DNA of 64,000 bases from Hyphomicrobiales bacterium (GCA_041397845.1 JAWKVW010000007.1:53288-117287); one strand, 5' to 3'; shown: positions 37,544-63,409, counted from the first letter of the stretch. Made by a program: numbers and translations. The notes: generated from the sequence alone by a model not told the origin.

Positions 37544-37547
37544 GGAA

Positions 37548-38465
37548 ATGGACGGGATCGACGGCGCGGCGCCGACTTCCTGCGGCTTTGTCGCGCTCAT
37601 CGGCGCGCCGAATGCCGGCAAGTCGACGCTGATGAACACGCTCGTCGGCGCCAAGGTGTCGATCGTCACGCACAAGGTGCAGACCACCCGCGCCATCATC
37701 CGCGGCATCGCCATTGCCGGCGAGAGCCAGATCGTCTTCATCGATACGCCCGGCATCTTCCAGCCGCGGCGGCGGCTTGACGTCGCCATGGTCGACACCG
37801 CCTGGGGCGGGGCGCGCGACGCCGACCTCGTCGCCGTGCTCATCGACGTGCGGGCCGGGCTCGAGGACGAGGCGGTCGCCATTCTCGACGGGCTCGCCAA
37901 TGTCCGCCAGCCGAAGATCCTCGTTCTCAACAAGGTCGACCTCGTGCGCCGCGACAAGCTGCTGGCGATCGCCGCCGAGGCCAATGCCCGGGCGAAGTTC
38001 GAGGCGACCTTCATGATCTCGGCGCTGAACGGCGACGGCACGGCGGACCTGCTCGGCTGGCTCGGCAAGCACGTGCCCGAGGGGCCGTGGCATTTTCCCG
38101 AGGACCAGATCTCCGACCTGCCGATGCGCAGCCTCGCCGCCGAGATCACGCGCGAGAAGCTGTTCCTGCGCCTGCACGAGGAACTGCCCTACTCCTCGCA
38201 TGTCGAGACGGAACAGTGGAAAGAGCTGCCGGACGGCTCGGTGCGGATCGAGCAGACGATTTTCGTCGAGCGCGACAGCCAGAAAAAGATCGTCCTCGGC
38301 AAGGGCGGGCGCACCATCAAGGACATCTCGATGGCGGCGCGCGCGGAGCTCGCCGACATTCTCGAGCAGAAAGTGCACCTGTTCCTGTTCGTGAAGGTGC
38401 GGGAGAACTGGGCCGACGACCCGGAGCGCTATCGCGAGATGGGGCTGGAGTTTCCCCGCCGCTGA
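37548..38465 (+). CDS. era: GTPase Era
   Basis: 305 aa from MDGIDGAAPTSCGF inside track ORF 37287-38465. It has GAPNAGKST, DTPG and NKVD motifs, and a KH domain (KKIVLGKGGRTIK). Confidence 0.95.
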   Translation: MDGIDGAAPTSCGFVALIGAPNAGKSTLMNTLVGAKVSIVTHKVQTTRAIIRGIAIAGESQIVFIDTPGIFQPRRRLDVAMVDTAWGGARDADLVAVLIDVRAGLEDEAVAILDGLANVRQPKILVLNKVDLVRRDKLLAIAAEANARAKFEATFMISALNGDGTADLLGWLGKHVPEGPWHFPEDQISDLPMRSLAAEITREKLFLRLHEELPYSSHVETEQWKELPDGSVRIEQTIFVERDSQKKIVLGKGGRTIKDISMAARAELADILEQKVHLFLFVKVRENWADDPERYREMGLEFPRR

Positions 38466-38564
38466 GGGCCGCTTGCGGCCCTCATTGCCTTCCACGACGG
38501 GCCGCTTGCGGCCCTCATTGCCTTCCACAACGGGCCGCTTGCGGCCCTCATTTCCTGCTGCAAC
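38466..38564. repeat. Array of three 33-nt units, each starting with the hairpin GGGCCGC-TT-GCGGCCC
   Basis: Units start at 38466, 38499 and 38532. The unit is gggccgcttgcggccctcattgccttccacgac, and the third tail diverges. The array begins on the base after the era stop codon. Confidence 0.85.
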
Positions 38565-38589
38565 AGCCTGATGCGCCTGCTCCTGGCGC

Positions 38590-39075
38590 CTACTGCTCGC
38601 GCTCGGGCACCGGGGCGGCACCGCACGCGGCGCGCATCGCCTTGAACGCCTCGGCCGAGCCGGCGAGCGGAACCTGGATGGTCTGCTCGTCGAGCGTCAC
38701 GGTTGCCGTCTTGCCAAGCTTCAGCGCGGCGATGAGGCCATCGTCGATGGTGATGTCGGTGGCGCCGAGCAGGCCGGCGGCCGGGTCGCGATAGCGATAG
38801 CCGCGGCGCACGTCGACGAGGCCATCGATGCTGAAGATGAGGTCGACCTTCTGGCCCTCGCCGCCGCCGGAAAGCGGCAGACCGACGGTCAGGCGGACCT
38901 GCTTGTCGGACGAGCGGCAGGAGAACTGCAGCGCCGGGGCCGTGCAGCCGGCACAGGCCGGGGCCGCAGCGAAAGAGCCATCGCCGCCAGGACCGCCCTG
39001 CCAGCCGCCGCCCTGGGCGAGCGCGATGCCCGGCGCCGTGATGAAAATGGATAGGGCGAGCAACTTGCGAAACAT
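38590..39075 (-). CDS. Hypothetical secreted protein (four Cys; faint IalB-like flavour only)
   Basis: 161-aa ORF with the signal peptide MFRKLLALSIFITAPGIALA. The mature part has a balanced composition. I am not confident of any family. Confidence 0.6.
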   Translation of the reverse strand: MFRKLLALSIFITAPGIALAQGGGWQGGPGGDGSFAAAPACAGCTAPALQFSCRSSDKQVRLTVGLPLSGGGEGQKVDLIFSIDGLVDVRRGYRYRDPAAGLLGATDITIDDGLIAALKLGKTATVTLDEQTIQVPLAGSAEAFKAMRAACGAAPVPEREQ

Positions 39076-39260
39076 TCCGATAGGCCTCCCGCTTCAGGTC
39101 CCCGAGCCGCGCGGCGGGTAACCGCCCGTCGCCGCGCTTGTGGCAGGCATCGATGCTTGCCTTGCACCGCCGCCCGGCGCAACCGCTATTGCGCGGAAAC
39201 GGCAAAAAAGCGGCAAGCGCGCCGCCCTTGCCGGCAAAGGGGAGCAAACCGACAAAAAAG

Positions 39261-39281
39261 GGAAGCGGACGAACCGCTTCC
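39261..39281 (-). terminator. Rho-independent terminator after the cytochrome c peroxidase gene
   Basis: ggaagcgg-acgaa-ccgcttcc hairpin. The plus-strand aaaaaag before it gives cttttttg after it on the minus strand. Confidence 0.75.
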
Positions 39282-39307
39282 CCAGTTTCGAGTGACTGTG
39301 TGAGGGA

Positions 39308-40350
39308 TTATTTGGTCATGGCAACCGGCAGCGGCGTCGTATCGCTCGACACCGGCAGGATCGGATATTCGACGCGCGGCTGCTCGCCGGTCAGCGTCTC
39401 GAGGAAGGCGGTGATGGCGTCGACCTCGGCGTCGTTCAGTTTTTCGCCGAGCTGGCTTTCACCCATGATGGCGACGGCCTGACGCAGGCTCCAGACCTTG
39501 CCGGAATGGAAGTACGGGGCGGTCAGCGCGATGTTGCGCAGCGGGCCGGCGCGGAAGACATATTCCTCATCGGCGGTCTTGGTGACGGCGAAGCGGCCCT
39601 TGTCGCCGGCCGGCAGGATCTCGCTGCCCGGCTTCTCGACGACGCCGAACGGATAGTAACCGTTGCCGCCGAGATTGACGCCGTTGTGGCAGGAGGCGCA
39701 GCCCTTGTCGATGAAGAGCCCGAGGCCCTCCTTCTCCTTTTCGGTCAGCACCGCCTGATTGCCCTCGAGGAACTGGTCGAAGCGCGAGGCGGGCGTGATC
39801 AGCGTCGCCTCGAACGACTCGATCGCCTTGGCCATGTTGTCGAAGGTGACCGGCGCCGCCTCGCCCGGGAAGGCCGCCTCGAACTCGGCGACATAGGCCG
39901 GCATGCTCTTCAGCGTCGCCTCGACCACTTCAGGCGTGTTGCTCATCTCGACGCCGGCCTGCACCGGGCCCTTGGCCTGTGCCTTCAGATCCTCGGCGCG
40001 GCCATCCCAGAACTGGGCGACGTTGAAGACGGCATTGAGAACCGTCGGCGCATTGCGCGGGCCCTTGGCCCAGCCGTGACCGATCGAGGTCTCGAGGTTG
40101 TCGTCACCACCCATGCCGAGATTGTGGCAGGTGTTGCAGGAAATAAGCTGGCTGGAGGAGAGGCGCGGATCGAAGAAAAGCTTCTTGCCGAGCTCGACCT
40201 TCTCGCGCGTCACGGCGTTGTCCTTCAGGGCGGGCAACACGGCGGGAACGGCCTCGAAATTTTCCTTGGCCTTGGCGAGGAGGAATCATCGGCGTGCGCC
40301 GACGTCGCCGCGAATGCGAGGACGGCGGCCATTGCTATGAAGCGCGACAT
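39308..40350 (-). pseudogene. Di-haem cytochrome c peroxidase, signal peptide out of frame with the mature part
   Basis: ORF 39308-40240 has the haem motifs CNTCH and CASCH and PLRNIALTAPYFHSG. The signal peptide MSRFIAMAAVLAFAATSAHADD lies in ORF 40225-40434. One shift lies near 40275-40290. Confidence 0.8.
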
Positions 40351-40594
40351 GAAATCACCCTTTGGTTTGGGAGCTGCTATGACGCGATCTTGAAATGGAA
40401 TTAGAATGCCTCTCAATGTGGCGGAATGTAGCATGATTTTCCCAACAAGAGCAAAAGGATATATAGAATTATCAATATGATTCCAGTTTTACCCTGATGA
40501 TCATGCGATCCGATTTGCCCCGGCATTGCCGGCAATTGCACCGGGATGCGGAAGCGGCCTTTGCCAGCCGCGGCAAAGGCGCGATAAATCATCG

Positions 40595-41423
40595 ATGCAG
40601 TGGAGCGATGAGGCCATCATTCTGGGCGCCCGCCGTCATGGCGAGGGCAGCGTCATTCTCGAGGTGATGACGGCCGGCCATGGCCGTCATCTCGGCCTCG
40701 TGCGCGGCGGGCGATCGCGGCGGATGCAGGCGGCCCTGCAGCCCGGCAACGCGGTCGATCTCGTCTGGCGGGCCCGGCTCGACGAGCACCTTGGCAATTT
40801 CACCGTCGAGCCGACCGACCTCAGGGCAGCGCGGCTGATGGAAACGCCGGTCGCCACCTATGGCGTGCTGCTGCTGGCGGCGCATCTCAGGCTGCTGCCG
40901 GAGCGTGACCCGCATCCCGAGCTCTACGCGGCGCTGCGGATCATCCTCGACGAGTTGCACGAGCCGCTGCATGCGGGCGCCCTCGTCGTTCGCTTTGAAA
41001 TGGCGCTGCTCGATGAGCTCGGCTTCGGCCTCGACCTTTCGGAGTGCGCCGCGACCGGCACGGCGGAAGACCTCGTCTGGGTGTCGCCGCGCTCCGGCCG
41101 GGCCGTCAGCCGGGCGGCGGGCGAGCCCTATGCGGCCAAGCTGCTTCCCCTGCCCGGCTTTCTCGCCGGCGGCGCGGCAGCTTCCGGAGGCGGCATTCCG
41201 GCCATGATCGACGAGGCTGCCACCGAAAGAGGTCTTGCGCCGCGCAGGTATCGAGGCCGGCGACATCCACGACGGATTCCGCCTGACGGAGTTCTTCCTC
41301 ACCCGCCATGTCCTGGAGCCGCGCGGCATCGCCATTCCCGAGGCGCGGGCGGGCTTCCTGAAGGCACTGGCACGAGCGCTTGCAAAGGAACGCAACCTAT
41401 TCAATTATCCCTTAGAGGGTTGA
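40595..41423 (+). pseudogene. recO: DNA repair protein RecO, C-terminal third out of frame
   Basis: [39 protein letters not shown]... lies in the track ORF 40526-41581 frame. The conserved tail [44 protein letters not shown] lies in the ORF 41235-41423 frame. The shift is somewhere around 41150-41225. Confidence 0.8.
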
Positions 41424-41444
41424 GCCAGCAGGTATTTGCATTGA

Positions 41445-43080
41445 TGCCAACAGACACTAGAAAAATTGAGAAAATAGAAAACTTGAAATCCATATTCTCT
41501 ATACATGACAGAGAAACAGTAATTTGCATTTCTTTGAGAAATATCATGGGGTTTTCCCGCATATTTTTAATGAAGAAATAGAATCAAAATCTTCCGAGTG
41601 GAATCTAATTCTTCTTTCAATATTTAGAATTATTTCTACAACGTTTTCTGCATGCACATCACCAGGCAAGGAGCCGAGAGATCTGCGGAAGAAGCCATTT
41701 TTTTCTCTTCAAGCCTCCGGCGATCTTTCGAGCACCATGCCTATCGATCCAGATTCTAGTGGATTTCATGAATGCCGCAATGAATGCCGCTAGGGCAGCA
41801 GCTTCATACGATGCGTCTGAACACGCCCTGAGCTCCATAAAACGAACCATGAGCGCCCTTCGTGGAAAGCCACTAGCACAATCTGTATGGAATGAAATAC
41901 AGAAAGATATACAAAATCTATCTAATCCAAATTTTTCAAAAACCTACGCACGACCAGGCTTTGGTCTAGCTATAACGCAACATTGCCAATGAAATTCCTC
42001 GAAATACGGTCAAAACTAATTAACCAACACGAAGATTGGGAAGTGTGGATAGACTGGTATGAGGCGCGCCTGTCGGGTAACCCAATCGAACAAAAACTTG
42101 AAATTGCCCGGGCGACGATCGACGGGGACATTTGGGATCGAGGACCATTTTGTCAACGCGCATATCAAGACGCTGATTGCCAACTTTGCGAAAGACTGGC
42201 ACGACCGTGAGAATACAGACACTGAACCAGCTGCCCAGCGCCCTGCCAGCTACTCATTCTCGGCGAGAGCGGCCGCATCGAGCGCCGCGGCGCGAGGTGC
42301 CGTCAAATCTTGATCTCGCCGGAGCATTCCACAAAGAGGCTGTCGCCAAGGCGCTACAGATTCGCTGCGCATCGGCAGTCGAATGCGCCGTTGCGTCGAG
42401 GCGACCATCGTCCGCCTTCTCGAAGCGCTTGGCGCCGCGCCGGACGATATCGTGCCGGGCATCATCGTCAGCCGGCTGCGCTCACCGAGGGGACCTGAAG
42501 GCCTATGATACGCCGGAAGGCCAGGCCGAATTGTTCCCCAGTGCCATCGCCGAGATGTTCGACCTGCAGATGACGGTCGACGATCTCGTGGCGCTCTTTT
42601 TCCCTCTGTCCGCGACCTTCAGGCGCGTAGGCTGGTTCTCGACATCCAGGCGGCAGATGTGCCGACTGTCGATGCGCTTCTTGCCGAAATCGCCGACGCC
42701 GCAGCGGCATCGGATCTCGTCGCCGCATCGACCGTGCTGGCCTTGACCGATGTCGATCCTGAAGTTGCCCGGCTTTCAGAAGTCATCACCTTTGTCAGCA
42801 ATGAAGACGTCCGCGTCGCGGCGTTGCGCCCGCGCCGACATCGTCGCCGGCAAGGTGCTGGTCTCCCGCAACTTCCTCGGCGCTGTCGTGAAGCTTGGCA
42901 AGACTGTCGGCGATGGCGCCCGCTGGACAGGCAAGCAGGCCGGAAATCGCGGTGAGCAGCCTGAAAGGGCAGAAGGCGATTCCCCGCGGCGTTGAGAAGG
43001 TGTTGAAAAGGCGTCGAGGGGTCGTTTCCGCGCCATCAAAGGCGGGTTTGTGGCACTTGCCGGCGCTTAGCGGCCGTTGA
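41445..43080 (+). pseudogene. Shattered remnant of an unknown, low-GC (foreign-looking) gene
   Basis: Eight overlapping plus-strand ORFs in all three frames (41524-41793 ... 42895-43080) have peptides that continue one another. The most protein-like block is EDWEVWIDWYEARLSGNPIEQKLEIARATIDGDIWD. I cannot name a family. Confidence 0.45.
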
Positions 43081-43391
43081 CGGCACTCGGCGCCCTTGTC
43101 ATGACCTTTAGCCCTTCCGCGCCCGCATCGAGAGCCAGCGGGAGGAGATTGAATCTTCGTTGACCTCGGTGACCGCAAGCTCCGACCAGGATGATGGGGC
43201 GGATAACGACGCTTCCCGGAGGTCGGCTGCCTTTTGCGTCACCTGAAATATTCCAGATAACAAACCTTCAATATATTTCAAAATACCGAATATTCATGAA
43301 ACTACATAAAACTTGATTTGTATAAGTTGTTTTTAGGATTTCCGCCCTCATATGTTACACATAAAGACATCTCCATTGCTGGAGAATAAAA

Positions 43392-43828
43392 ATGAAAAGA
43401 ACGCTATGGAAACGCGAATACGAAATCGGCAACGAGAAAATCGACCGGGAGCATATGCGTCTCGTCATGCTCTGCCGTTCCGTGCATGACGCGATCATGG
43501 TCCACAAGGACGAGGTGATCATGGGTCAGGTGCTGACGGCCCTGCAACTCTATGCCGAAGAGCATTTTCGCGATGAGGAACAGGAGCTCGAGGCGCTGCA
43601 AAGCCCCCTCGCCCGCGCATGAAGACCGCCCATGCGCGGCTGGAGGCACAGCTCCGGCTGATCGTCGAGGGCTTCGGCAAGCAGAGCCACCGGCAGACGC
43701 TGGAAGACCTGCTCGTCTGGCTCGACACCGAGATGCTGCCGCATTTCACCGGCATGGATGTCACCGCGTTCCTGGCGACGCCGGAGGGGCGCAAGTCGCA
43801 CCTGAAGCGCCTCTATTCGGTGGCTTGA
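43392..43828 (+). pseudogene. Bacteriohemerythrin-like protein split by one frameshift
   Basis: ORF 43392-43622 (WKREYEIGNEKIDREHMRLV, EEHFRDEEQEL) and ORF 43619-43828 (KTAHARL, WLDTEMLPHFTGMD) together give the His/Glu/Asp ligand pattern. The shift lies just before 43619. The 180 nt upstream are strongly AT-rich. Confidence 0.65.
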
Positions 43829-43877
43829 GCCGCCTTTCCCCTTGCCTCGACCGGCGTTCGCCGGTACCCCGATTCCC

Positions 43878-46124
43878 ATGGGGAAAAAGCCGATTCTGCC
43901 GCCCGGCGGCGACGTCGAGAATGTCAGCCTGCGCGATGCGCTCGAGGAGCGCTATCTTGCCTATGCGCTCTCGACGATCATGCACCGGGCGCTGCCGGAC
44001 GTTCGCGACGGCCTGAAGCCGGTGCATCGCCGGCTGCTCATGCTGATGCGGCTGCTGAAGCTCGATCCCGGTTCAGGTTTCAAGAAATGCGCCCGCGTCG
44101 TCGGCGACGTCATCGGCAAGTTTCATCCGCATGGCGACCAGGCGGTCTATGACGCACTGGTGCGCCTCGCCCAGACCTTCGCGCAGCGCTATACACTCGT
44201 CGACGGACAGGGGAATTTCGGCAATATCGACGGCGATAACGCTGCGGCGATGCGATACACCGAGGCGCGGCTGACCGAGGTCGCCGGCCTGCTGCTCGAG
44301 GGCATCGACGAGGACGCCGTCGACTTCCGCGCCACCTATGACGGCGAGGAGGAAGAGCCGGTCGTGCTGCCGGCAAATTTCCCGAACCTGCTGGCCAACG
44401 GCTCCTCGGGCATTGCCGTCGGCATGGCGACGTCGATCCCGCCGCACAATGTCGCCGAGCTGTGCGACGTGGCGCTGAAGCTCATCGATGCGCCGGAGAC
44501 GCCGGTCGAGGAACTCGTCAAGATCGTGCCCGGCCCGGATTTCCCGACCGGCGGCCTGCTCGTCGACGATCGCGCGCAGATCATCGAGGCCTATCGCACC
44601 GGCCGGGGCGCCTTCCGTCTCCGGGCGCGCTGGCACACCGAGGAGCTCGGGCGCGGCACCTTTGCGGTGATCGTCACGGAAGTTCCCTATCAGGTGCAGA
44701 AGTCGCGCCTCATCGAGAAGATCGCCGAGCTATTGACGGCGCGAAAGCTGCCGCTGCTGGCCGACGTGCGGGACGAGTCGACCGAGGACGTGCGCATCGT
44801 CCTTGAGCCGAAGAGCCGGACGGTCGACCCGACGCTGCTGATGGAATCGCTGTTCAAGCTGACCGAGCTGGAAAGCCGCGTCTCGCTCAACATGAACGTG
44901 CTGTCGCGCGGCGTCGTGCCGAAGGTGATGAGCCTTGCCGAAGTCATGCTTGAATGGCTCGGCCACCGGCGCGAGGTGCTGCTGCGGCGCTCGCGCTTCC
45001 GGCTCGGCAAGATCGTGCACCGGCTGGAGATCCTCGAGGGCTATCTCGTCGCCTATCTCAATCTCGACGAGGTGATCCGCATCATCCGCGAGGAGGACGA
45101 GCCGAAGGCCGAATTGATGCGGACCTTCTCGCTGACCGACGTGCAGGCCGAGGCTATTCTCAACATGCGCCTGCGCTCGCTGCGCAAGCTCGAGGAAATG
45201 GAAATCCGCCGCGAGCACGCCGAGCTGACGGCGGAAAAGGAAGAGATCGAGTCACTGCTCGCCTCGGACGAGAAGCAGTGGAAGGTCGTTGCCTGGCAGA
45301 TCGGCGAGGTGAAGAAGACGTTCGGGCCGAAGACCGAGATCGGCCGCCGGCGGACGGGCTTCGTCTCCGCCCCGGATCATGGTCAGGAAGACATCCAGCA
45401 GGCGATGATCGAGAAGGAGCCGGTGACCGTCGTCATCTCCGAGAAGGGCTGGATTCGCGCCCTCAAGGGGCACCTCACCGACCTGTCGACGCTGACCTTC
45501 AAGACCGACGACCGGCTCAAGATCGCGCTGCATGCCGACACGCACGACAAGCTGCTGGTCTATTCGACGGGCGGCAAGTTCTACACCCTTGCGCCGGACA
45601 AGCTGCCGGGCGGGCGCGGCCATGGCGAGCCGGTGCGGCTGATGATCGACATCGAGGAAGGGCACGACATCGTCGACATCTTCGTCCACGATCCGGCGCG
45701 CAAGCGGCTGCTCGTCTCGACCGAGGGGCGCGGCTTCATCGTTCCCGAGGCCGACGTCATCGCCAATACCCGCAAGGGCAAGCAGGTGTTCAACGTTTCC
45801 GGCAAGGAAGAAGCGCGACTGGCTGTTCCGGTCGAGGGCGACACGGTCGCAATCATCGGCGAGAACCGCCGCCTGCTCGTCTTCCCGCTGGCGCAAGTGC
45901 CGGAAATGGCGCGCGGGCGCGGCGTGCGGCTGCAGCGCTACAAGGACGGCGGCGTCGCCGACGCGCGCATCTTCCCGCTCGCCGAAGGGCTGACCTGGAC
46001 CGACAGCTCGGGCCGCAGCTTCACGCGCAGCGAGGCCGACCTGAAGGAATGGATCGGCGACCGCTCCGGCGCCGGGCGCATGCCGCCGAGCGGCTTTCCG
46101 CGTTCGAACAAGTTCAGCGGCTGA
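43878..46124 (+). CDS. parC: DNA topoisomerase IV subunit A
   Basis: Track ORF 43842-46124; the likely start is [11 protein letters not shown] at 43878. [22 protein letters not shown] and the active-site Tyr context [10 protein letters not shown] are present. Confidence 0.93.
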
Positions 46125-46188
46125 TTTTCAAAGCAGATTCAACGGCATGACAGCAACCTGGCTGGCTCCGGCGCGACGGGTCGTGGCC

Positions 46189-46665
46189 TCAGCCGCGATC
46201 GCGCAGCAGCCTTGCCTTCTGGCGATCCCAGTCGCGCTGGCGTTCGGTCTCGCGCTTGTCGTGGACCTTCTTGCCGCGGGCGATGCCGATGAGGATCTTC
46301 GCCCGGCCCTTGTCGTTGAAATAGACCTTGAGCGGCACGATGGTCATGCCCTCTTTCTGCACGGCGTCGGCGAGCTTGCCGATCTCGCGCTTGTGCAGCA
46401 GCAGCTTTCGCGGCCGGCGGGTCTCGTGATTGAAGCGGTTGGCCTGCAGGTATTCCGGGATATAGGCGTTGTAGAGCCAGAGCTCGCCGCTCTTTTCGGC
46501 GGCATAGGCATCGGTGATGTTGGCGCGGCCGCCGCGCAGGGACTTCACCTCGGTGCCGCCAAGCACGATGCCTGCCTCGAAGGTGTCGCCGATTTCATAC
46601 TGGAACCGCGCCTTGCGGTTCTCGGCGGCAAGGCGGCCACTCGACTGAGGCTTCGATGCGGCCAT
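46189..46665 (-). CDS. smpB: SsrA-binding protein
   Basis: 158-aa ORF with [18 protein letters not shown] and [18 protein letters not shown]. Confidence 0.95.
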
Positions 46666-46727
46666 TGTCTTCGATCATCCCCGGGAGGCGTGCCGGAGGC
46701 CGCGCCTGCGGCCCCCGGCGATCGCGT

Positions 46728-47606
46728 TCAGTTGACGAGGCCGGCGTGGCGCATCGCCTCGCGCACGGTCGCCCGCGTCGCGTCGGACACCGGCACCAGC
46801 GGCAGGCGCACATCCTCGCGGCACTTGCCGAGCTCGGCGGCGCCGAACTTGACCGGCGACGGGCTGGTCTCGACGAACAGGGCCCGATGCAGCGGCATCA
46901 GACGGTCCTGAATGTCGAGCGCCTTCCTGTAGTCGCCGGCGGCGCAGGCCGCCTGGAAGTCCGAGCACAGGCGCGGCGCGATGTTCGACGTCACGGAGAT
47001 GCAGCCATGGCCGCCATGGGCCATGAAGCCGAGGGCCGTGCCGTCCTCGCCCGAAAGCTGGTTGAACTCCGGCCCCATCATCTCGCGCTGGGTCGAGACC
47101 CGGTCGAGCCTGGCGGTCGCATCCTTGACGCCGATGACGTTCGGGCAGTCCTTGTGGATGCGGGCCATGGTCTCGACCGACATGTCGATGACGCTGCGCG
47201 GCGGGATGTTGTAGATGAGAATCGGAATCCCGACGGCGGCATCAATCGCCTTGTAGTGCTGGTAGAGACCTTCCTGGGTCGGCTTGTTGTAGTAGGGCGT
47301 GACCACGAGGAGCCCGTCGGCGCCAGCCTTTTCAGCATGGCGCGCAAGGTCGATGGCCTCGGCCGTGTTGTTCGAGCCGGCGCCGGCGATGACGGGCACG
47401 CGCCCGGCGGCGGCCTCGATGACGATCTCGACGACGCGTTTGTGCTCGGAATGCGAGAGCGTCGGCGACTCGCCGGTGGTGCCGACCGGTACGAGGCCAT
47501 TGGTGCCCTCGGCGATCTGCCACTCAACGAATTCGGCCAGCGCTTTCTCGTCCACCGCCCCGTTTGCGAACGGAGTAATGAGTGCGGTGATCGATCCCAT
47601 GAACAT
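46728..47606 (-). CDS. dapA: 4-hydroxy-tetrahydrodipicolinate synthase
   Basis: 292 aa from [13 protein letters not shown] inside track ORF 46728-47771. It has [17 protein letters not shown] and the Lys context VIGVKDAT. Confidence 0.95.
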
Positions 47607-52310: not shown

Positions 52311-54191
52311 TCAGCGGATGACGGAGAGCTCTATGCGCCGGTTGGCGGCGCGCCCTTCCCGCGTTGCGTTGTCGGCAACGGGGCGATCCTCGCCAAAGCC
52401 CGCCGCTGACATGCGGTCACGTCCGACACCGGCGGCAACCAGCGTGTCGAGGACGGCCTTCGCCCGTTCCTCGCTCAAGGTTTTATTATACGCCGAAGCA
52501 CCGACCGAGTCCGTATGACCGGCGATCTCGAGCCGCAGTTCCGGGCAGTTCACCAGCCGACTGGCAAGCGCCGCGATGCTGGCGGCACTCTCATCATCAA
52601 GCTCTGAACCATCCGTGCGGAAATGCGCGATGATCGGCGCCGTCTCGTCAATCTCGCATGCCGGCGCGGCAGCGGCGGGGACCGCAGGCGTTGCAGGTGC
52701 AGCGGGCGCGGCAGCGACCGGAGCTGCAGGCGTGGCGGGCGTAGCCGGTGCGGGGCGGCCGGAGCCGGGGTCTCGACCACCGGGGCGGCCGCTTCAGCCG
52801 CCGGCATGGCGGGCGCGGCGATGAAAGCCGGCGGCGTGGCCGCGGCCATCGCCTCCGGGGGAACCGGCGGCGCGGCGAGCGGGCGGCCGGCGCGGCCATC
52901 GCCTGCGGTTCCGCCTGCGCTACCGGAGCCGGCGCCTCGGCCGCAGGCGCGGCGGCTTCAACTGCCGGCGCTGGCCCGGCAGCGCGGTGCAGCGGCTGGC
53001 GGCTCGGACATTGCCGGCGCTGGCTCGGCTGCAGGCGCGGCGGGCGCCGCGATGAAGGCCGGCGGCGTTGCAGCCGCCATTGCCTCTGGCGGGACCGGCG
53101 GCGCCGCGAAGCCATGGCCGGCGGCGGCATCAGGGCCGGCGGGGCTGGCGGCGGCGCCACTGGCGCGATCTGGGCCGGGGCCATCGGGGCTGGCATCGCC
53201 GGAGGGCCACCATCATGGGCGCTGACATCATCGGCGCAGCCGCCATTGGTGCAGGCGTCATTGGTGCAGGCGTCAGGGGCGATGCCATCACAGGCGCTGG
53301 CATTGCCGGCGAAGGCATCGCCGGAGCAGCCATTTCCGGCGCCGGCGTGGCGGACACAGGCGCAGCCTGGGGCATGGGCGCAGCCGGGGGCATTGGCGCA
53401 GCCGGGGCTGGCGCAGCCTGGGGCATTGCGCAGCGGACGCAGGCATGGCCGGCGGCGGCGGGAAGGTCGGGGCAACCGAACGCCGGTGGCGGCATCATCG
53501 GCCCGGCGTAGCCGTATCGCGGCGGCGCGCCCCAGGGAACGGGCGTAAACGGCGCGCCGGCGGCAGGCGGCGGCAGCGGACCGGCAAAGGCCGGTGGTGG
53601 CGGCAACGGTGCGCCGGCAGCGGGCGGAAACCCGCCCGACGGAGGCGCGAACCCGCCCGACGGAGGCGCGAATGCGCCCGGCGGAGGCGCGAAGATGCAC
53701 CCGGCGGCGGCGCGAAAGCACCTGGCGGGGCGCGAAAGCACCTGGCGGAGGCGCGAATGCACCGGTGGCGGCAGTGGAACAGGGGCGCCATTCGGCATCG
53801 GCGCACCGCTTGCCATCGGTGCGGCATTCGGCATGCCACCTGCCGGCGGCATCGGCGGACCCCAGGCCGGGCCCGCACTCCAAGGCTGGCCACCATTCCA
53901 AGGCTGGCGCTGATAACGAGCTTCGCGCGAACTCCAGAATTCGCGCGGTGCCCAACCGGCACGTTCGCGACGCGCATCGTGGCGCGCCTTGGCATCCCAG
54001 TAGTCGGTCGGGCGCGATTGCGGCGCCGCCTGACCGGAAAGGCTGCCGGGCAGGCCCGGAACCGGTCTTGGCACATAGCACTGCGGGGCGCTGCCGGCCG
54101 CATCGACCGGCGGAGCGGCGAGCGCCGGGATGGCCGCGGAACCGAGCAGCGCAACGGCGGCGGCGCCAAAAATCAATCTGGTCTTTTTCAT
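52311..54191 (-). pseudogene. Secreted Pro/Ala/Met-rich repeat protein with C-terminal OmpA-like peptidoglycan-binding domain; frame changes many times
   Basis: The signal peptide MKKTRLIFGAAAVALLGSAAIPALA lies in ORF 53130-54191. The OmpA domain ELRLEIAGHTDSVGASAYNKTLSEERAKAV...NRRIELSVIR lies in ORF 52311-52553. The middle is readable only by hopping between three frames (about 10 changes). It contains a 21-nt GAFAPPP array and a 231-nt internal repeat. Confidence 0.6.
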
Positions 54192-54266: not shown

Positions 54267-56468
54267 CTACTGGCGTATCGTGAACTCGATCCGGCGGTTG
54301 CGGGCCTTGCCCTCGGCCGTGCCGTTGTCTGCGACCGGCATCGTTTCGCCATAACCGCGCGATGTCAGGCGGTCCGGGACGACGCCGGCGTCGGTCAGAT
54401 AGGTGACGACGGCGCCGGCGCGAGCCTCGCTGAGCGTCTGGTTGGCCGCGTCCGAACCATCCGAATCGGTGTGTCCGGCAATCTCGATGCGGGCAGCCGG
54501 GCAGCGCTGGCTGGCATAGGCGAGCGAATCGAGCAGGCCGAAACTGTCCTCGGAGATCACCGCCTCGCCGGAGCGGAAGCGGATGGTGTTGCCGGCGAGG
54601 ATGCCGCTCAGCAGCGTCTGGCACTCGGCATCGGCAACCTCGGCTGCCGGCGGCGCGACAGTCAGCCCGCCGCTGGTCGTGAAACCGGCCGGCAGGGCCG
54701 ATTTAAGGGCGTCGAGAATCTGGCCGATGGCGCGCTCGGTAAAGGTCTCGCCCGAGAGTTCCAGCGTCTTGTCGGTCAAGGCGGCGCGGCCGGACATCAG
54801 GCGGCCGACCGCCTCGATCGCCGCATTGGCGGCGGCGGCAAAGCCCTCCGGAGCGCCCTCGCCGACGACGAGGCGATCATCGACCGCCCGCCCCGGGAAG
54901 AGCCGGGCGACGAGCGACAGGATTGCTGCGCGCGCCTCCTCGTTCGGGACAATGCCGGAGAGGACGATGCCATCAGCACCAGCCTCAATCGACCAGCCGA
55001 ACGGTGCCGGCGTCGCCGGCTGCTCGGCCGCGACCGGCGCGGCAGCGGCAGGTTCGGCAGGGACAGGCTCAACGACGGCCGGCGGCGGCGGCGCGGCCGG
55101 ACCCTCGATCTCGCGCAGGGCGATGGTCATGCCCTCAGGCAGGCTGCCATCCAGCATGGTGTTGACTGCAATGAACATTTCAGCCGTCGGCGCCTTGCCG
55201 TTGACGGTCAGCGAGAGATCGGACAGTGACGCTGTGCCTTCCGACAGATTGCCGAGGGCGCCGATTGCGAACAGCGCTTCATCGGCAAAACCCGCCGGGG
55301 CGCCACTGGCCACGACCAATCTGTCGTCGACCTTTTCTCCGAGCTTTGCAGCCGCGGCAACCAGCGCCGCGCGAACTTCTTCGGAAGGAACAAAGCCCTC
55401 GAGAACGACGACGCCATTTGCCGACTTGGCCGAGAAGGTGAACGGAGCGACGGCCGGCGGCGTCACCGTCAGCTCGGCAAGCGCGATGCCGGCGGGAAGC
55501 TCTTTGTCGAGGACGGAGCGGATATCCGCTTCGCTGTCGAAGTGACGGGCGCGACCACGGATGGTCAGCTTGTCGTCTTCAAGGCGAGCGGTGCCATCCT
55601 CGAGGCGCGACAACGTATGAAGCGCGGCAACGACGCCGCCGACAAAGCCCTCCGGCGCGCCGCTGGCCGGAACAGTGCCGTTCTCGACCGCAATACCCGG
55701 CAGAATCGTGGCCATGCTGCCGAGAATATCGGCCTCGCCATGGGCGCCCGGCATGCTGCCGCCAAGAACGAGCTTGCCGCTGCCGCTTTCGGCAGTCCAG
55801 ACATAGGGACTGGCCTTCGGCGGCATGACCGCGTCGGAGACAAGCGTATATCCCGCGGGGAGCTGGGAGAGCGCGGCGCGGTAGGCATCATAGGACGCGC
55901 GGTCGGCGGCAAGTCCGGAGAAAGAAAGGCCGGTGCCGGAGATTTCCACCTTGCCGGTCTCGAGATTGGCGAGGCGGGCAGCAGCGAAACCGACCGCGGC
56001 GAGCCAGCCTTTTTCGTCGGGCGCGCCATTGGCGTCAGCGGCACCATCCTCGACGGCGAGCCCCGGCAAGGCCGCGGCGACAGCATCCGCGACGGCGCCA
56101 CGCGCCGCGCCGAACGGCACATTGCCGGCAAGCTTCACCCCGGATGCCGACTTTTCCGCAGTCCAGACAAAGGGATCGGCCACGGCGAGGATGTCGGAGG
56201 CGTCCTTGACGACCCGCACACCCCAGACGCGATCGACCGACTGGCGGCCCATCTCGCGATAACCTTCGGAGGGAGCCGTTCCGGAGAGGGTCAGATCGCG
56301 GCCATCGGCCGTGACCGCGCCCCAGGGCTGGCCATCGGCCTTCAGGGCAGCGCCGGCACGCTCGACAAGGTCCGTTTCAATGTGCCCGGACCTGACGACA
56401 AGCGCCAGAACCGTTCCGACGATGACCGTTGCAGCACCGGCGATGACCCGCGTCTGCCACTTCCGCAT
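54267..56468 (-). CDS. Large membrane-anchored OmpA-domain protein with BON-like segment and four tandem modules
   Basis: 733-aa intact ORF with an N-terminal TM and VWGVRVVKDASDI. Four modules start PFVWTAEKSASGVKLAGNVP, PYVWTAESGSGKLVLGGSMP, PFTFSAKSANGVVVLEGFVP and PFGWSIEAGADGIVLSGIVP. The C-terminus is RIEIAGHTDSDGSDAANQTLSEARA...NRRIEFTIRQ. Confidence 0.85.
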   Translation of the reverse strand: MRKWQTRVIAGAATVIVGTVLALVVRSGHIETDLVERAGAALKADGQPWGAVTADGRDLTLSGTAPSEGYREMGRQSVDRVWGVRVVKDASDILAVADPFVWTAEKSASGVKLAGNVPFGAARGAVADAVAAALPGLAVEDGAADANGAPDEKGWLAAVGFAAARLANLETGKVEISGTGLSFSGLAADRASYDAYRAALSQLPAGYTLVSDAVMPPKASPYVWTAESGSGKLVLGGSMPGAHGEADILGSMATILPGIAVENGTVPASGAPEGFVGGVVAALHTLSRLEDGTARLEDDKLTIRGRARHFDSEADIRSVLDKELPAGIALAELTVTPPAVAPFTFSAKSANGVVVLEGFVPSEEVRAALVAAAAKLGEKVDDRLVVASGAPAGFADEALFAIGALGNLSEGTASLSDLSLTVNGKAPTAEMFIAVNTMLDGSLPEGMTIALREIEGPAAPPPPAVVEPVPAEPAAAAPVAAEQPATPAPFGWSIEAGADGIVLSGIVPNEEARAAILSLVARLFPGRAVDDRLVVGEGAPEGFAAAANAAIEAVGRLMSGRAALTDKTLELSGETFTERAIGQILDALKSALPAGFTTSGGLTVAPPAAEVADAECQTLLSGILAGNTIRFRSGEAVISEDSFGLLDSLAYASQRCPAARIEIAGHTDSDGSDAANQTLSEARAGAVVTYLTDAGVVPDRLTSRGYGETMPVADNGTAEGKARNRRIEFTIRQ

Positions 56469-56703: not shown

Positions 56704-56727
56704 CCCGGCGGGATCGCTCCCGCCGGG
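56704..56727 (-). terminator. Rho-independent terminator after the downstream porin
   Basis: cccggcggga-tcgc-tcccgccggg perfect 10-bp stem. The plus-strand aaacaaaagaaaa before it gives a long T-run on the minus strand. Confidence 0.8.
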
Positions 56728-56772: not shown

Positions 56773-58016
56773 TCAGAAGTCGCGCTGGATGCGCATCACG
56801 CCGGAGAAGTAGTCGACGTCGCCGCCCGGGACCGAGCCAACATTGTGGATGTCAACGTCCGACATTCTCGTAAGCCACTTCAACGCCGATGGTCAGGCCG
56901 CTGACGGGCATGTAATTGTTGGTCAGGATGATGTTATAGGCATCCCAATCACGAACGGTCGAGGCCGTCGGGTTGTTGACGTCGATGTAGGAACCAGTCA
57001 GAGCCGTCGAGAACTGGGGCGTCCAGTTATGCAGGATGCCTCGCAGCAACCGAGTATGCCTTTGGTGGCCTTGAAGCCAACACCATCCGTGTAGCCATCA
57101 ATGAACGAACCAAATCCTGCAGTCGGCGAATTCTGAACGCCGATTCAAAGGTGCCGACGTATTCGGTTGCACCCTCAGAATAGGCCGCATGTACTAGCAA
57201 TCTGGATCACCCGCGGCGATCATCGGCAAATTAACTGTCAGGCCACCCATGACCGCCCAGCCAAGCTCAGCGTCAGCAGCAGTCGCTGTCGTGAAGCGGT
57301 TCTGAGGATCGCGCCAGCCACCTGGGCAGAACCCCAGCCCTGATCAACACGCAGAGCAGCAACAACATCCGGAAGAGTGTGGCCACTGCGATAGTCGTCA
57401 ATGCCACGGGCCCTCAATACCGGTCGAGCCGGTCCGGAAAGTCCCATCTTCAACGGAAACAGTGGCCGAGAAAACCATTGCCGAATGCATAGGTATAGGC
57501 CAGAAGATTCGTGTTCAGATAGGAATAGGCGGTGTCGACAAACGGACCCCAAGCATAGCCCGCCAATAGTCAAAGAACGACGGCGCGACCTGCCGTCAGA
57601 CCACCGAACTGCGTAAACGCGCGTTCGATGAAAGTGTCAGTGGTATCGCCAGAATCCTGCCGAACCCGGACATCAAGGAATGCACAGCAGACCATACTCG
57701 GTCATGGTTCGTGCATCGAACTTCTGGCAGATCGATGCTTCAGCGCGCGTCATCGTATGGTTTTCGCTGCGGTCGCAATTGCCATTGTCGTCGCCGTTCA
57801 GGGCAGGTTCGACGTAGCGCAAATCGTAGCGGGCATAGCCGCCGATCTTAAGGCAGGTCTCGGTGCCCGGAATGTGTAGAAGAAGCCGGTGCCGAAAGTG
57901 CCGCACACCTTGACGTACTCGACCGGCTCAGCAGCCGGGAAGGTCAGCAGCCCGGGCACCGGTAACCGCGAGGGGAGGGCGGCGGCGGAGCCGAGAATGA
58001 GGCTCTTGATGTTCAT
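56773..58016 (-). pseudogene. RopA/Omp2-type porin, copy B, about 13 frame disruptions
   Basis: Conserved blocks are scattered over three frames: MNIKSLILGSAAA; [18 protein letters not shown]; [19 protein letters not shown]; FDARTMTEYGLL; ERAFTQFGGLTAG; NLLAYTYAFGNGF; SATVSVEDG; GHTLPDVVAALRVDQGWGSAQVAGA; AELGWAVMGGLTVNLPMIAAGD; HNWTPQFSTALTGSYIDVNN; GLTIGVEVAYENV; and VDYFSGVMRIQRDF-stop. The length of 1244 nt is not a multiple of 3. Confidence 0.8.
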
Positions 58017-58300
58017 CTTGTTACCTTTCATCGCATCTTTACGAGCGGAGTTCCGTTCGGTCTGTTTTGGCCGAATTGCCTTGACCCCGAACTCGATACC
58101 GAACGCATCAAGAGTATCCTCGTCATTCCGTCGTGGTCAGTGTGGGTATTCAATCCATCGCCGGAAAGCAGAATATCCAGCGGCTTGGTCTTCGCAATCG
58201 ATGAACTGCCCAAAATGACGGCAAAGCCAGCGTTTGAAAAACCGCTGTGACATTTCCACAAATAATTGCGTCACGGCAAAAAACCGCCAGAACCAAGTGT

Positions 58301-58316
58301 TTAACCGATCATTAAC
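58301..58316. promoter_or_regulatory. CtrA-type box TTAA-N7-TTAAC upstream of porin copy B
   Basis: ttaa-ccgatca-ttaac is an exact match, about 285-300 nt upstream of the start at 58016, between the two porin genes. Confidence 0.45.
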
Positions 58317-58489
58317 AAACCGGGATCGTGTGGCTGCCGTTTGAGGCAGCGCCCAGGGAGACCGAAAACCGGGGATCTTCGCCCCTATTCGACCAAGGTC
58401 GATGACGAAGCCGGCACGAAGACTTCAGCCCCAACGAGGTACAAGAGCGTCGAATCATCGAATCCGGAAAAGCAGCGTCCAAATAGAAA

Positions 58490-58516
58490 ACGCCTCCGGC
58501 GGAGACCGCCAGGCGT
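58490..58516 (-). terminator. Rho-independent terminator after porin copy A
   Basis: acgcct-cc-ggcgg-aga-ccgcc-aggcgt hairpin. The plus-strand aaatagaaa before it gives tttctattt on the minus strand. Confidence 0.75.
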
Positions 58517-58541
58517 CAATATTTTTGAACCAGCTAGTGGA

Positions 58542-59747
58542 TCAGAAGCCGTCGGATCCGCAGCGCACCGGAGATCGCGTCACGATCGCCACCGACGGCT
58601 TCACCCGTAGAGTGCCAGTCGAGTGAACGTCAAGCTTCTCGTAGCCAACTTCAGCAGCATCAGCAGGTTGGAAACCGGCGAATATCCAACAGTACCGAAG
58701 ACAGTCGCAACATCCCAATCAGCAGCCGAACCCATGAAGGACGGTTGTTGACAGAGATATAACCACCGGTGATCGCGGTCCAGATCTGCGGCGTCCAGAA
58801 GTGCTTGAAGCCAGCATAGGCCGACCAAGCCTTGGCGAGTTTCAGGCTGACGGACGCCGGATCAACGGCAGCGTCAATAACGGTCGTAGCCAAGCCAATG
58901 TTGCCACTGAGCGCCAACATAAGACACCGCGCCTTCCGAGTACAACGCCAGCCTTGATGGCATCACCAGCGGCGATCATCGGAAGATTGACCTGAACATC
59001 ACCCTTCAACGCCCAGCCGAGCTTGGAGTCAATATCAGAGACACCATCCGTGGTGGTGCGAATGTTATGGGTCACACCAGCCAGGCTCACAAAACCAACC
59101 CTGGTCGACATGAACCAGCAACAACGTCGGGAAGCGTGTGGCCACCGCAAATATCGGTCGCACCAGCCGCATCCCAAACAGTCGTGCGAACGACCCATCT
59201 TCAACCGACAGCGTGGCGGAGAAACCGTTGCCAAAAGCAAGGTGTAGGCCAACAGATTGGTCGGAGCAAGAATGGCGTGCAACTGGGCCGTTGACCGCCA
59301 TCAACCGTCGATGAAGCTGGAAGCCAGCGCCGTAATCAAAGAAGGTTGCAGCACCAGCGGTCAGACCACCAAACTGGATAAAGGCACGCTCAAGCGAGGT
59401 ATCAACATCACCACCAGAATCCTGGGTCCAGTACATTTCAATGAACGTACGAAGCAGACCATATTCAGTCATCGTACGAGCATCGAACTTCAGCATCAGC
59501 GCGCGCGTCAGCGTGTCTTCATCGCGATCAGCCGATCAATCGGCTCGCGATAGGCGAGCTCGTAGCGGGCATAGCCGCCGATCTTGAGGCACGTCTCGGT
59601 ACCCGGGATGTAGAAGAAACCCGTGCCGAACGTGTCGCAAACCTTGACGTACTCAACCGGCTCAGCAGCCGGAAGATCAGCCGCCTGGGCGCCGGTCACC
59701 GCGAGAACCGCGGCGGCAGAGCCGAGAATGATGCTCTTCATAGTCAT
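58542..59747 (-). pseudogene. RopA/Omp2-type porin, copy A, about 10 frame disruptions
   Basis: The N-terminus is [63 protein letters not shown] (ORF 59508-59747). Further blocks lie in other frames: LKFDARTMTEYGLLRTFIEMYWTQDSGGDVDTSLERAFIQFGGLTAGAATFFDYGAGF; NLLAYT.AFGNGFSATLSVEDG; GHTLPDVVAG; VGFVSLAGVTHNIRTTTDGVSDIDSKLGWALKGDVQVNLPMIAAGDAIKAGVV; and AKAWSAYAGFKHFWTPQIWTAITGGYISVNN. It ends ...GF-stop. Confidence 0.8.
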
Positions 59748-60101
59748 ATCCTGACCTCCAATCGTCTAACCTCAGGGACTTGGCGTCTTCTGCAGCGTCG
59801 GTACGTTTTGGCGTTACCGCCGCCGACAACAAGGAAGCCTTCCGAGTTCCCCGCGAATTCGCCGTTTCGCCTTTCGGTCGACCACCCCAGGTCGGAGACG
59901 CTACGGCCAGCGACTTCGGTTTCCCGCCGTCGCAAGGCCACTTTTATCCCAGCCTCCTTACCAATCAACTGGCAAATGCCTATGGAAGGGGCTCTCCAGC
60001 CGCTATTTCCAACCGGTGTTGCAGGAATGTCACGAGACGTGATCCGGGCCGGCGAAAAGCGTTGCGCATTCGTTAAATGGACGGCCAAGCTGCGGAAAAT
60101 G

Positions 60102-60345: not shown

Positions 60346-61668
60346 ATGCGTATCGCAATGATCGGGACCGGCTATGTGGGCCTCGTCTCGGGGGCGTGCT
60401 TTTCGGAATTCGGATTCGAGACGACCTGCGTCGATGTCGATTCGGCCAAGATCGAGGGCCTGAAGCGCGGCGAGATCCCGATCTACGAGCCCGGGCTCGA
60501 CGCCTTGGTCGAGCGAAATGCGGCCGAGGGGCGGCTGAAATTCACCACCGAACTGAAGAGCGCAGTCGCCGAGGCCGATGCCGTCTTCATTGCGGTCGGC
60601 ACGCCGAGCCGGCGCGGCGATGGCGAGGCCGACCTTGCCTATGTCTTTGCCGCGGCCGAGCAGATCGCGGAGGCGGCGCGGAACGGGGTTGTCGTCGTCA
60701 TCAAGTCGACGGTCGTCGTCGGCACGAACCGGCGGGTCAAGGAGGCGATCCAGAAAGCGCGGCCGGATCTCGACTTCTCGATGGCCTCAAATCCGGAATT
60801 CCTGCGCGAAGGTTCGGCGATCGAGGACTTCATGCGGCCGAATCGCGTCGTCGTCGGCGTCGAGGACGAGCGGGCCCGCGAGGTGATGCGCCGGCTTTAC
60901 CGGCCGCTTTATCTGCGCGAGACGCCGATGGTGGTCACCAGTCTCGAGAACGCCGAGCTCATCAAATATGCCTCGAACGCCTTCCTGGCGATGAAGGTCA
61001 CCTTCATCAACGAGGTCGCCGACCTTTGCGAGGCGGTTGGCGGCAATGTTCAGGAAGTCGCGGCGGCGCTCGGTCTCGACCAGCGAATCGGCTCGAAATT
61101 CCTGCATGCCGGGCCGGGCTTCGGCGGCTCGTGCTTCCCGAAGGACACGCGGGCCTTTGCCGCGACCGGCCAGAATCACGGTGCGCCGCAGCAGCTCGTC
61201 GAGGCGGTGATCGCGGTCAACGAGGCACGCAAGGAGCGGATGGCGGATCGAATCATCGCGGCGCTCGGCGGCGCGGGGGCGGCGGCCGGCAAGACCGTCG
61301 GCGTGCTCGGCCTCGCCTTCAAGCCGAACACCGACGATGTGCGCGAAGCACCGAGCCTTGCCATCGTGCCGCGCCTGCAGGCGGCGGGAATCACCGTGCG
61401 GGCGCATGATCCGGAGGCGATGGAGCAGGCGCGGCCGCTTCTTGCCGACGTCGTTTGGTGCGATTCGGCGCTGGCGGCGGCAGAGGGCGCCGACGCCGTC
61501 GTCGTGCTGACGGAATGGAACGCCTATCGCGGCATCGACCCGAACCGCCTCGCCGCCGCCATGCGCGGGCGCGAGCTCATTGACCTGCGCAACGTTTTCC
61601 GGGTCGAGGACCTCGCCGGCAGCGGCCTGCGGCTGACGAGCATCGGACGGCGCCCGGCCGAGGGCTGA
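60346..61668 (+). CDS. ugd: UDP-glucose 6-dehydrogenase
   Basis: 440 aa from MRIAMIGTGYVGLVSGACF inside track ORF 60277-61668. It has the catalytic GFGGSCFPKD and LGLAFKPNTDDVREAP. Confidence 0.95.
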   Translation: MRIAMIGTGYVGLVSGACFSEFGFETTCVDVDSAKIEGLKRGEIPIYEPGLDALVERNAAEGRLKFTTELKSAVAEADAVFIAVGTPSRRGDGEADLAYVFAAAEQIAEAARNGVVVVIKSTVVVGTNRRVKEAIQKARPDLDFSMASNPEFLREGSAIEDFMRPNRVVVGVEDERAREVMRRLYRPLYLRETPMVVTSLENAELIKYASNAFLAMKVTFINEVADLCEAVGGNVQEVAAALGLDQRIGSKFLHAGPGFGGSCFPKDTRAFAATGQNHGAPQQLVEAVIAVNEARKERMADRIIAALGGAGAAAGKTVGVLGLAFKPNTDDVREAPSLAIVPRLQAAGITVRAHDPEAMEQARPLLADVVWCDSALAAAEGADAVVVLTEWNAYRGIDPNRLAAAMRGRELIDLRNVFRVEDLAGSGLRLTSIGRRPAEG

Positions 61669-61789
61669 CGCCAGCGGCCCTCCCCCGCCCGGGCGCGGCG
61701 ATCCGCACCGGGCAACCTTGCCGCCGACGCGCTACTATAGTCGTAGCGGGCGTAACCCGGACGATAACCGGGGCCGGCGGGAGGGAATC

Positions 61790-62545
61790 ATGGCGCAATG
61801 GCGCGAGAAGTTCGACAAGGGCCTGATGCGGCTCGGCAAGCGGATCGTCTTCGGGCTCGATGCGTTCTGCGTGCGCTGGTCGAAGGTGCCGAACAAGCCG
61901 TTCTTCGAGGTCGAGGAGTTTCCCTTCGCGGCCGAGATCGAGCGGCAGTTCCCGGCGATTCGGGCCGAGCTCGATGCGCTGCTGGCCTATCGCGAGCATC
62001 TGCCGAACTTTCAGGATCTCTCGCCCGACCAGCGCTACATGACCAATGACGACGGCTGGAAGACGGTCGTCTTCTATGCCTATGGCCTGAAATCGCCGGG
62101 CAGTTCGAAGCTCTGCCCGAACACCGTCGCAGCGCTCCGGCACATTCCGGGCATGACGACGGCGATGTTCTCGATTCTCGCGCCGCACAAGAAGGTGCCG
62201 GCGCATCGGGGACCCTACAAGGGCGTGCTGCGCTACCATCTCGGCGTCGTCGTGCCGGAGCCGGCGGAGGCTTGCGGCATCCGCGTCGACAAGGAAACCC
62301 GGCACTGGCGCGAGGGCGGCAGCCTGATCTTCGACGATGCCTTCGACCACGAGGCCTGGAACGGCACGGACAAGGTGCGTGCCGTGCTTTTCGTCGATTT
62401 CATCCGGCCGATGCGGTTTCCCGGTTCGCTCGTCAACCGGCTCCTCATCTGGGTGATCGCGCTGTCGCCGTTCGTGCTCGGCGCAGCCGGGCGGCAGATT
62501 TCCTGGGAGCGGCAGTTCGACAAGGTGTTCCGGGCGCCGGACTGA
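61790..62545 (+). CDS. Aspartyl/asparaginyl beta-hydroxylase family (LpxO-like) protein
   Basis: 251 aa from MAQWREKFDKG (GGGAGGGA Shine-Dalgarno) inside track ORF 61718-62545. It has KVPAHRGPYKGVLRYHLGVVVP and FDDAFDHEAWN. Confidence 0.85.
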   Translation: MAQWREKFDKGLMRLGKRIVFGLDAFCVRWSKVPNKPFFEVEEFPFAAEIERQFPAIRAELDALLAYREHLPNFQDLSPDQRYMTNDDGWKTVVFYAYGLKSPGSSKLCPNTVAALRHIPGMTTAMFSILAPHKKVPAHRGPYKGVLRYHLGVVVPEPAEACGIRVDKETRHWREGGSLIFDDAFDHEAWNGTDKVRAVLFVDFIRPMRFPGSLVNRLLIWVIALSPFVLGAAGRQISWERQFDKVFRAPD

Positions 62546-62695
62546 CCGGTGCCGCGTCATCGAAGCGTTACCGAACCGACATATTTTCATGGCCGGTTTT
62601 CATGGTCGGCGGAACCTTTGTCCGCGCTCCGGCGTTATGGTGCCGGGAGGCGGCGCTTTTTCGGCCGCCGAGATTGCAACAAGACCGGACGAGAG

Positions 62696-63409
62696 ATGAC
62701 GAAGCGCTACGCGATCTACTATGCCCCTGCCCCGGAGAGCCCGCTGTGGCGGCTTGGCAGCGACTGGATCGGTCGTGATGCGGCAAGCGGCAAGGAGTGT
62801 ACTCATCCGGAGACAGCCGGCTTTCGCTCTCCCGACATTGCCGCGATGACGCGCGGCGCGCGGCGCTATGGCTTTCATGCGACGCTGAAGCCGCCGTTCC
62901 GGCTGGCGGAGGGGTCTTCGGAAGGCATGCTTCTGGCGGCGTTCGAGGATTTTGCCTATTTCGCTGCGGCGATCGCGCCGATCCGGCTGGAAGTTGCGAC
63001 CCTCGACGGGTTTCTGGCGCTGCGGCCGGCGGCCGGCGGCGAGGCGCTGCGCGGCTTTTCCAGCGAAATCGTCGAGCGTTTCGATCGCTTTCGGGCGCCT
63101 GCCGAGCCCTCGGAACTGGCGCGGCGGGCGGCAGGCGGCCTGACGCAGCGGCAGAGCGAAACCCTGAAGCGCTGGGGCTATCCGCACCTCTTTGCCGATT
63201 TCCGCTTTCACATGACGCTGACCGACCGCCTTGACGAGGTGACGCGGCGGCGGCTGATGCCGGCGCTCGAGGCCTATTTCGCGCCGGCGCTCGCCGGCGT
63301 TCATTGCCTTGACCGGATTGCCCTTTTCGTCGAGCCGGAGGCGGGCCAGCCATTCCAGATTCTCGACAGCTTTCCGCTGGCGCCGCAGCAGTTCGCCGAC
63401 GCACGCTGA
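62696..63409 (+). CDS. DUF1045 (2H-phosphoesterase-like) protein
   Basis: 237 aa from MTKRYAIYYAPAPESPLWRLGSDWIGRDA inside track ORF 62549-63409. It has two H-x-T-L motifs (FHATL, FHMTL). Confidence 0.8.
   Translation: MTKRYAIYYAPAPESPLWRLGSDWIGRDAASGKECTHPETAGFRSPDIAAMTRGARRYGFHATLKPPFRLAEGSSEGMLLAAFEDFAYFAAAIAPIRLEVATLDGFLALRPAAGGEALRGFSSEIVERFDRFRAPAEPSELARRAAGGLTQRQSETLKRWGYPHLFADFRFHMTLTDRLDEVTRRRLMPALEAYFAPALAGVHCLDRIALFVEPEAGQPFQILDSFPLAPQQFADAR

Follow-up and report, generated by a model that had tools for sequence, protein, structure and literature searches.

Frameshifts in a tandem pair of Porin_2 genes of a Hyphomicrobiales metagenome-assembled genome probably reflect patches of consensus error

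The two tandem porin genes found in a 64,000-nucleotide stretch of a Hyphomicrobiales metagenome-assembled genome (MAG), hereafter the window, are interrupted by numerous frameshifts that most likely represent patches in which the consensus was left unpolished or was called poorly, the porin tract being the largest such patch (probability of about 0.85). The lesions behave as errors, unlike mutations, and the real genes, as judged from the sequence, are probably intact, ordinary tandem porins with an Ala-Asp N-terminus. This interpretation follows from the absence of stop codons, normal dN/dS values, preserved gene lengths, the mixed character of the indels and the presence of the same kind of lesion in unrelated genes; the MAG origin of the window and the intact two-porin locus in the related genomes L001 and L004/L005 are also counted in its favor.

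The two genes, porin copy A (58542-59747, minus strand, 1206 nt) and porin copy B (56773-58016, minus strand, 1244 nt), were delineated by frameshift-aware alignment and by matches to the Pfam family Porin_2 (PF02530). The stitched translation of copy A covers positions 8-336 of 357 in this profile (E=4e-45) and that of copy B positions 8-333 of 357 (E=2e-52), and the best-matching database porins yield E=2e-98 (A) and E=2e-178 (B), which puts the porin identity far above chance. Copy B aligns end to end with the 404-aa downstream porin of L001 (P0003), at 79% amino acid identity and with 0 in-frame stops, and copy A is 64% identical to the 410/412-aa upstream porin of L001/L004 (P0001/L001p1), with no stop when the frameshift penalty is set to its lower value. 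Given the full-length Porin_2 matches and the 60% amino acid identity between copies A and B, the description of the locus in the initial annotation as two tandem paralogues of the RopA/Omp2 type holds, and the blocks GHTLPDVVA and NLPMIAAGD that it listed are found in both copies. An alternative ATG start of copy B (MKGNKM) is located at 58031 (minus strand). Over their first ~65 codons (59550-59747 in A and 57820-58016 in B, minus strand), the two genes encode almost identical protein sequences, as does the intact pair of the relatives, which suggests, from the sequences compared, either strong constraint or gene conversion; the latter has been described for omp2a/omp2b of Brucella.

Frame changes were counted with a purpose-written protein-to-DNA aligner that tolerates changes of frame, together with a three-frame translation of the minus strand, in which the porin blocks of both copies are scattered through all three frames. 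Copy A shows 11-12 net frame changes, the number varying with the frameshift penalty and the reference, and one further change within the last ~5 codons, where the GDRDAISGALRI is followed by TTC-TGA (Phe-stop) in a different frame, for a total of at least 12. Copy B shows at least 14. The disruption of both copies, earlier estimated at about 10 (A) and about 13 (B) shifts, is confirmed by these counts. Together, the two porins contain about 26 small insertions and deletions, and some single shifts, such as that at ~57204, probably represent two events each. Of the C-terminal aromatic residue ascribed to both copies, the following is seen: copy B ends in RIQRDF-stop in frame with the last segment; in copy A, the corresponding TTC-TGA is present (58547-58542) but out of frame. 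As deposited, the tract contains no continuous ORF of ~400 codons: the longest ORFs are 143-146 aa, with none exceeding 146 aa between 56.6 and 60.2 kb. In the public annotation of the MAG, the porin fragments are entered as separate 'porin' or hypothetical proteins (MEZ5839957-961), and each of these is a singleton cluster among 15 billion proteins.

The elements that flank and direct the expression and export of a porin appear to be retained in both copies. The signal peptide of copy A (22 letters before AD) is intact, with the AXA site AQA-AD read by eye from the sequence (hyphens denote the predicted cleavage), and that of copy B, read in the same way and ending LAVTGARA-AD, is restored solely by removal of +2 and +1 nt. 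The nucleotide alignment of A with B places these two insertions near 57973 (+2) and 57939 (+1), so that the self-cancelling pair noticed earlier within this signal peptide is real; over the first 190 nt, copy B differs from copy A by +2, +1 and +2 nt. Both predicted cleavage sites that had been proposed, AQA-AD in copy A and ARA-AD in copy B, are present, and an Ala-Asp mature N-terminus is predicted for both copies and for all close relatives. The Ala-Asp motif is the reported peptidoglycan-attachment N-terminus of Brucella and Agrobacterium beta-barrels (PMC10787603, which summarises Godessart et al., 2021): in Brucella abortus and Agrobacterium tumefaciens, L,D-transpeptidases tether such barrels to the peptidoglycan. 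In the present porins, this N-terminus is a motif match for such tethering, by analogy.

Each copy is followed by its own terminator, as had been claimed. A hairpin search located a terminator-like hairpin with a T-tract after copy A (58492-58506, minus strand; the stem was extended to 58490-58516 in the initial annotation) and a strong one, with 10 pairs of which 9 are GC and again with a T-tract, after copy B (56704-56727, minus strand). The regions upstream of both genes are likewise intact, in agreement with the leader assigned to each copy. The leader or upstream region of copy A (59748-60042, minus strand) was defined by nucleotide conservation with the relatives, L001 8019-9101 aligning to 60042-58962 of the window at 77% identity; between the two genes, 58017-58491 (minus strand) comprises the intergenic sequence and the copy B leader. 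An Rfam search of the whole window detected no RNA family and hence no known leader element.

The porin tract is delimited by two intact genes. Directly downstream lies a gene for a 733-aa BON/OmpA-domain protein (54267-56468, minus strand; 0 frameshifts, dN/dS 0.26), which accompanies the porin pair in conserved synteny and marks the lower limit of the error tract, and the upper limit is an intact UDP-glucose/GDP-mannose dehydrogenase gene (60346-61668, plus strand). The latter gene, which L001 and L004 lack at this site, sits between an Asp/Arg hydroxylase gene and porin A. The relatives used for comparison, L001 (GCA_029572955.1) and L004 and L005 (from JGI metagenomes), are related at the genus level, the flanking genes sharing 77-83% nucleotide identity with them. 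The same locus in L001 and L004/L005 comprises two undisrupted porin genes in tandem, encoding 412+404 and 410+409 aa, respectively, and after them a BON/OmpA gene for 727 aa. This order, two adjacent Porin_2 genes whose products have Ala-Asp N-termini and then a BON/OmpA gene, is conserved in an uncultured clade, the nearest relatives of which come from metagenomes, e.g. of activated sludge, and the underlying biology is ordinary. Elsewhere in the window, a ~16-kb block from UDG to ParC (29848-46121) is inverted relative to L087 (GCA_029572955.1), which brings SmpB next to ParC; either a real inversion or a misjoin could account for this. In the close-strain Logan contig L086, the sequence runs from SmpB into AT-rich foreign DNA instead.

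Lesions of the same type occur in five other genes. The gene for a Pro/Ala-rich protein with an OmpA-like C-terminal domain (52311-54191, minus strand) changes frame ~8 times from ~53800 to ~52760, a count read by eye in low-complexity sequence and less certain than those for the porins. This gene has a GC content of 75-80%, a signal peptide and internal repeats of ~120 nt (with two occurrences of PPEAMAAATPPAFIAAPA), and all three frames are used; in relatives, it corresponds to a 601-629-aa protein with no Pfam match on record. The mmsB-like 3-hydroxyisobutyrate dehydrogenase gene (18156-19044, minus strand) is spread over three frames by ~4 shifts, near 18690, 18620, 18590 and 18300, and the ECH_2 (3-hydroxyisobutyryl-CoA hydrolase-type) gene (19492-20546, minus strand) contains two, at ~19900 and ~19525. 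A small DUF6163 gene located between these two split genes of valine catabolism (19088-19495) and the acyl-CoA dehydrogenase gene upstream of ECH_2 (20934-22106) are intact. The RecO gene (40595-41390, plus strand) has at least one frame change, between 41164 and 41250, its C-terminal part (HVLEPRG...ARAGFLKAL) being in another frame; a ~98-aa low-complexity insertion seen in a relative is missing from it. Finally, the hemerythrin-like gene (43392-43828, plus strand) has a single 1-nt deletion near 43615. No stops were seen in the frames read of these five genes, and the translations are conserved, so that the seven affected genes together contain at least 42 frame changes and no nonsense codon.

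All other genes compared with relatives over 29.8-64 kb, as well as those scanned elsewhere in the window, are intact. The window thus shows small indels in unrelated genes of one contig with clean sequence between them, the pattern expected of a tract of consensus error. A GC3 phase plot and a coding-frame HMM were used as pointers only, being confounded by the antisense signal at high GC, and gene-boundary events were discarded by hand. The tract at 41400-43400, between RecO and the hemerythrin-like gene, includes low-GC stretches (36-45% at 41.4-42.1 kb and 42% at 43.05-43.5 kb), stands in place of two genes of a relative (123 and 312 aa) and contains one ORF longer than 150 aa; the ORFs tried in a Pfam scan of 41.2-43.6 kb gave no match. 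An island, or a further patch of poor consensus calling, could explain this tract.

Sequences from the same species are available for other parts of the window. A contig from the Logan assembly of SRR28338172 (L169) is 99.25% identical to positions 61231-63364, the 2134-nt alignment showing 16 mismatches and 0 gaps, and the L086 contig, from ERR2248490, is 98% identical to positions 46186-47324, with 0 gaps over 1139 nt; the two runs contain the same species as the window. These contigs match the well-behaved parts of the window by substitutions alone, which is counted for the consensus-error interpretation. For the porins themselves, neither the protein collection nor the metagenome contigs yielded anything above 72-79% for either copy, which makes a direct same-species comparison impossible: the metagenome contigs searched with corrected copy B gave nothing above 72%, and the genome contigs searched with the BON/OmpA protein gave distant OmpA-domain matches and no same-species genome. 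Thus, no independent same-species assembly of the porin locus was found in the collections searched.

Taken at face value, the deposited sequence would make true pseudogenes of both porins and of the other split genes, and the organism would have lost two major peptidoglycan-tethered porins to neutral decay. The frameshifts do stand in the deposited sequence, several other genes of the window are disrupted as they would be in a pseudogenizing genome, and an intact same-species copy turned up in neither the protein nor the metagenome-contig searches. Of the features expected of pseudogenes, however, only the frame lesions are present, with neither nonsense codons nor raised dN/dS. There are 0 stop codons in the 802 frame-corrected codons of the two porins, and 2.75% of random substitutions in these codons would create one; at the usual ratio of ~10 substitutions per indel, 26 indels would be accompanied by ~7 stops, and the probability of observing none is 8e-4 (0.03 at 5 substitutions per indel). 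The absence of nonsense codons among all the frame changes of the seven genes points the same way. The frame-corrected dN/dS values relative to intact orthologues are 0.15 (B) and 0.26 (A), not above the 0.21-0.30 of six intact flanking genes or the 0.29 of the intact paralogue pair of a relative, although, with dS of ~1 to the nearest orthologue, this measure cannot rule out a very recent inactivation. A signature of purifying selection is apparent in every frame segment of both porins. An indel divergence of 1% implies ~10% (5-10% or more) neutral substitution, for which these data leave no room: copy B has a total pN of 0.14 relative to an orthologue whose own neighbours give pN values of 0.08-0.25. 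Deletional erosion is seen in neither copy, the lengths of 1206 and 1244 nt being comparable to the 1215-1239 nt in relatives and the promoter-side leaders and the terminators being retained. The indels are a mixture of +1, +2, -1 and -2, and several fall outside homopolymers, e.g. GGC[A]TAC, GCG[A]GGC and TAC[AC]ATT; the spectrum is not homopolymer-centred, and natural slippage mutations look unlike this mix. Neutral decay of these genes hence appears very improbable. The loss of two peptidoglycan-tethered porins contemplated in the initial annotation finds no support, as the two porins show neither nonsense codons nor an excess of amino acid changes nor a loss of length, and five unrelated genes share the lesion type; its second option, that the assembly is worst in this region, fits the evidence. 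The strongest version of genuine loss, in which both major porins and the Pro/Ala-rich OmpA-like envelope protein were inactivated by an indel-dominated process that produced no nonsense mutations, is barely credible; if true, it would entail a drastic remodelling of the connection between the outer membrane and peptidoglycan as well as an unusual mutation spectrum.

A mixture, in which one or a few real lesions, for instance a recent inactivation of one copy in this strain, are hidden among consensus errors, cannot be separated from pure artefact by the sequence alone, and porins are frequent targets of loss of function under phage or antibiotic selection. No lesion is distinct from the rest, though, and neither stops nor larger deletions are present, so such a mixture seems quite improbable. 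A special case of the artefact explanation, unlikely but carrying appreciable weight, is a chimeric, column-by-column consensus to which co-existing strains contributed divergent porin alleles. Variants that differ from the window by 0.75-2% are present in the runs from which the close-strain contigs derive, and the Logan short-read assemblies of these runs gave no porin ORF, as expected for a strain-variable tangle. Against this origin, three shifts are located in the most conserved, N-terminal block, and similar patches occur in the conserved metabolic genes mmsB and ECH_2, where strain variation is not expected. The porins do lie in a region of lower GC, as had been noted (0.52-0.60 vs 0.65-0.80 in the flanks), but low GC was rejected as the cause, and neither low GC nor paralogy suffices by itself, because equally dense patches are found in genes of 70-80% GC (mmsB and the Pro/Ala-rich gene). 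Programmed frameshifting or recoding was rejected as well, the sites being far too many, of mixed sign and without a common motif, as were errors linked to methylation motifs, given that the indel sites share no motif.

Under the preferred explanation by consensus error, the contig would be accurate over most of its length apart from patches of 0.4 to 3 kb in which small-indel errors reach ~1%, the largest (~3 kb) being that of the porin pair between its two intact neighbours. The cause may have been a consensus built from few or noisy (long) reads, failed polishing or a mixture of strain alleles; reads of other strains would be of no help at porin loci, which often differ between co-existing strains. 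Counting against this explanation, such an indel pattern would be unusual for an assembly made purely from short reads, and the densest error patch coincides exactly with the two porins. The corrected locus would encode a pair of Porin_2 beta-barrels, each with a leader, an intrinsic terminator and a Sec signal peptide cut before Ala-Asp, the putative site of L,D-transpeptidase tethering by analogy with Brucella and Agrobacterium. Because the locus read at face value would be scored as a loss of two major porins, caution is called for. The combination of many small indels, no stops, normal dN/dS, kept length and lesions in unrelated neighbours offers a flag for error tracts that needs no reads and could be useful before gene loss is deduced from MAGs.

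The corrected porins resemble RopA of Rhizobium leguminosarum and Omp2a/Omp2b of Brucella in their full-length PF02530 match, size of ~400 residues, signal peptide and, in copy B, the C-terminal ...RIQRDF, and the organization as two tandem paralogues with near-identical 5' ends is that of Brucella omp2a/omp2b. They differ from this group in sequence, with 40-47% identity to the named porins of Stappia, Microvirga and Pannonibacter and 64-79% to those of the nearest uncultured relatives, and in that neither copy is an open reading frame as deposited. The similarity to the peptidoglycan-tethered beta-barrels of B. abortus and A. tumefaciens consists in the predicted Ala-Asp N-terminus, here a sequence motif only. 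In the nature of their lesions, the genes resemble the frameshift-rich genes of long-read or hybrid metagenome assemblies, in which indels far outnumber substitutions, translations are conserved across frames and the errors are patchy and hit unrelated genes on one contig; the difference is the density in the present tract, ~1 error per 90 nt, which is unusually high for a finished consensus.
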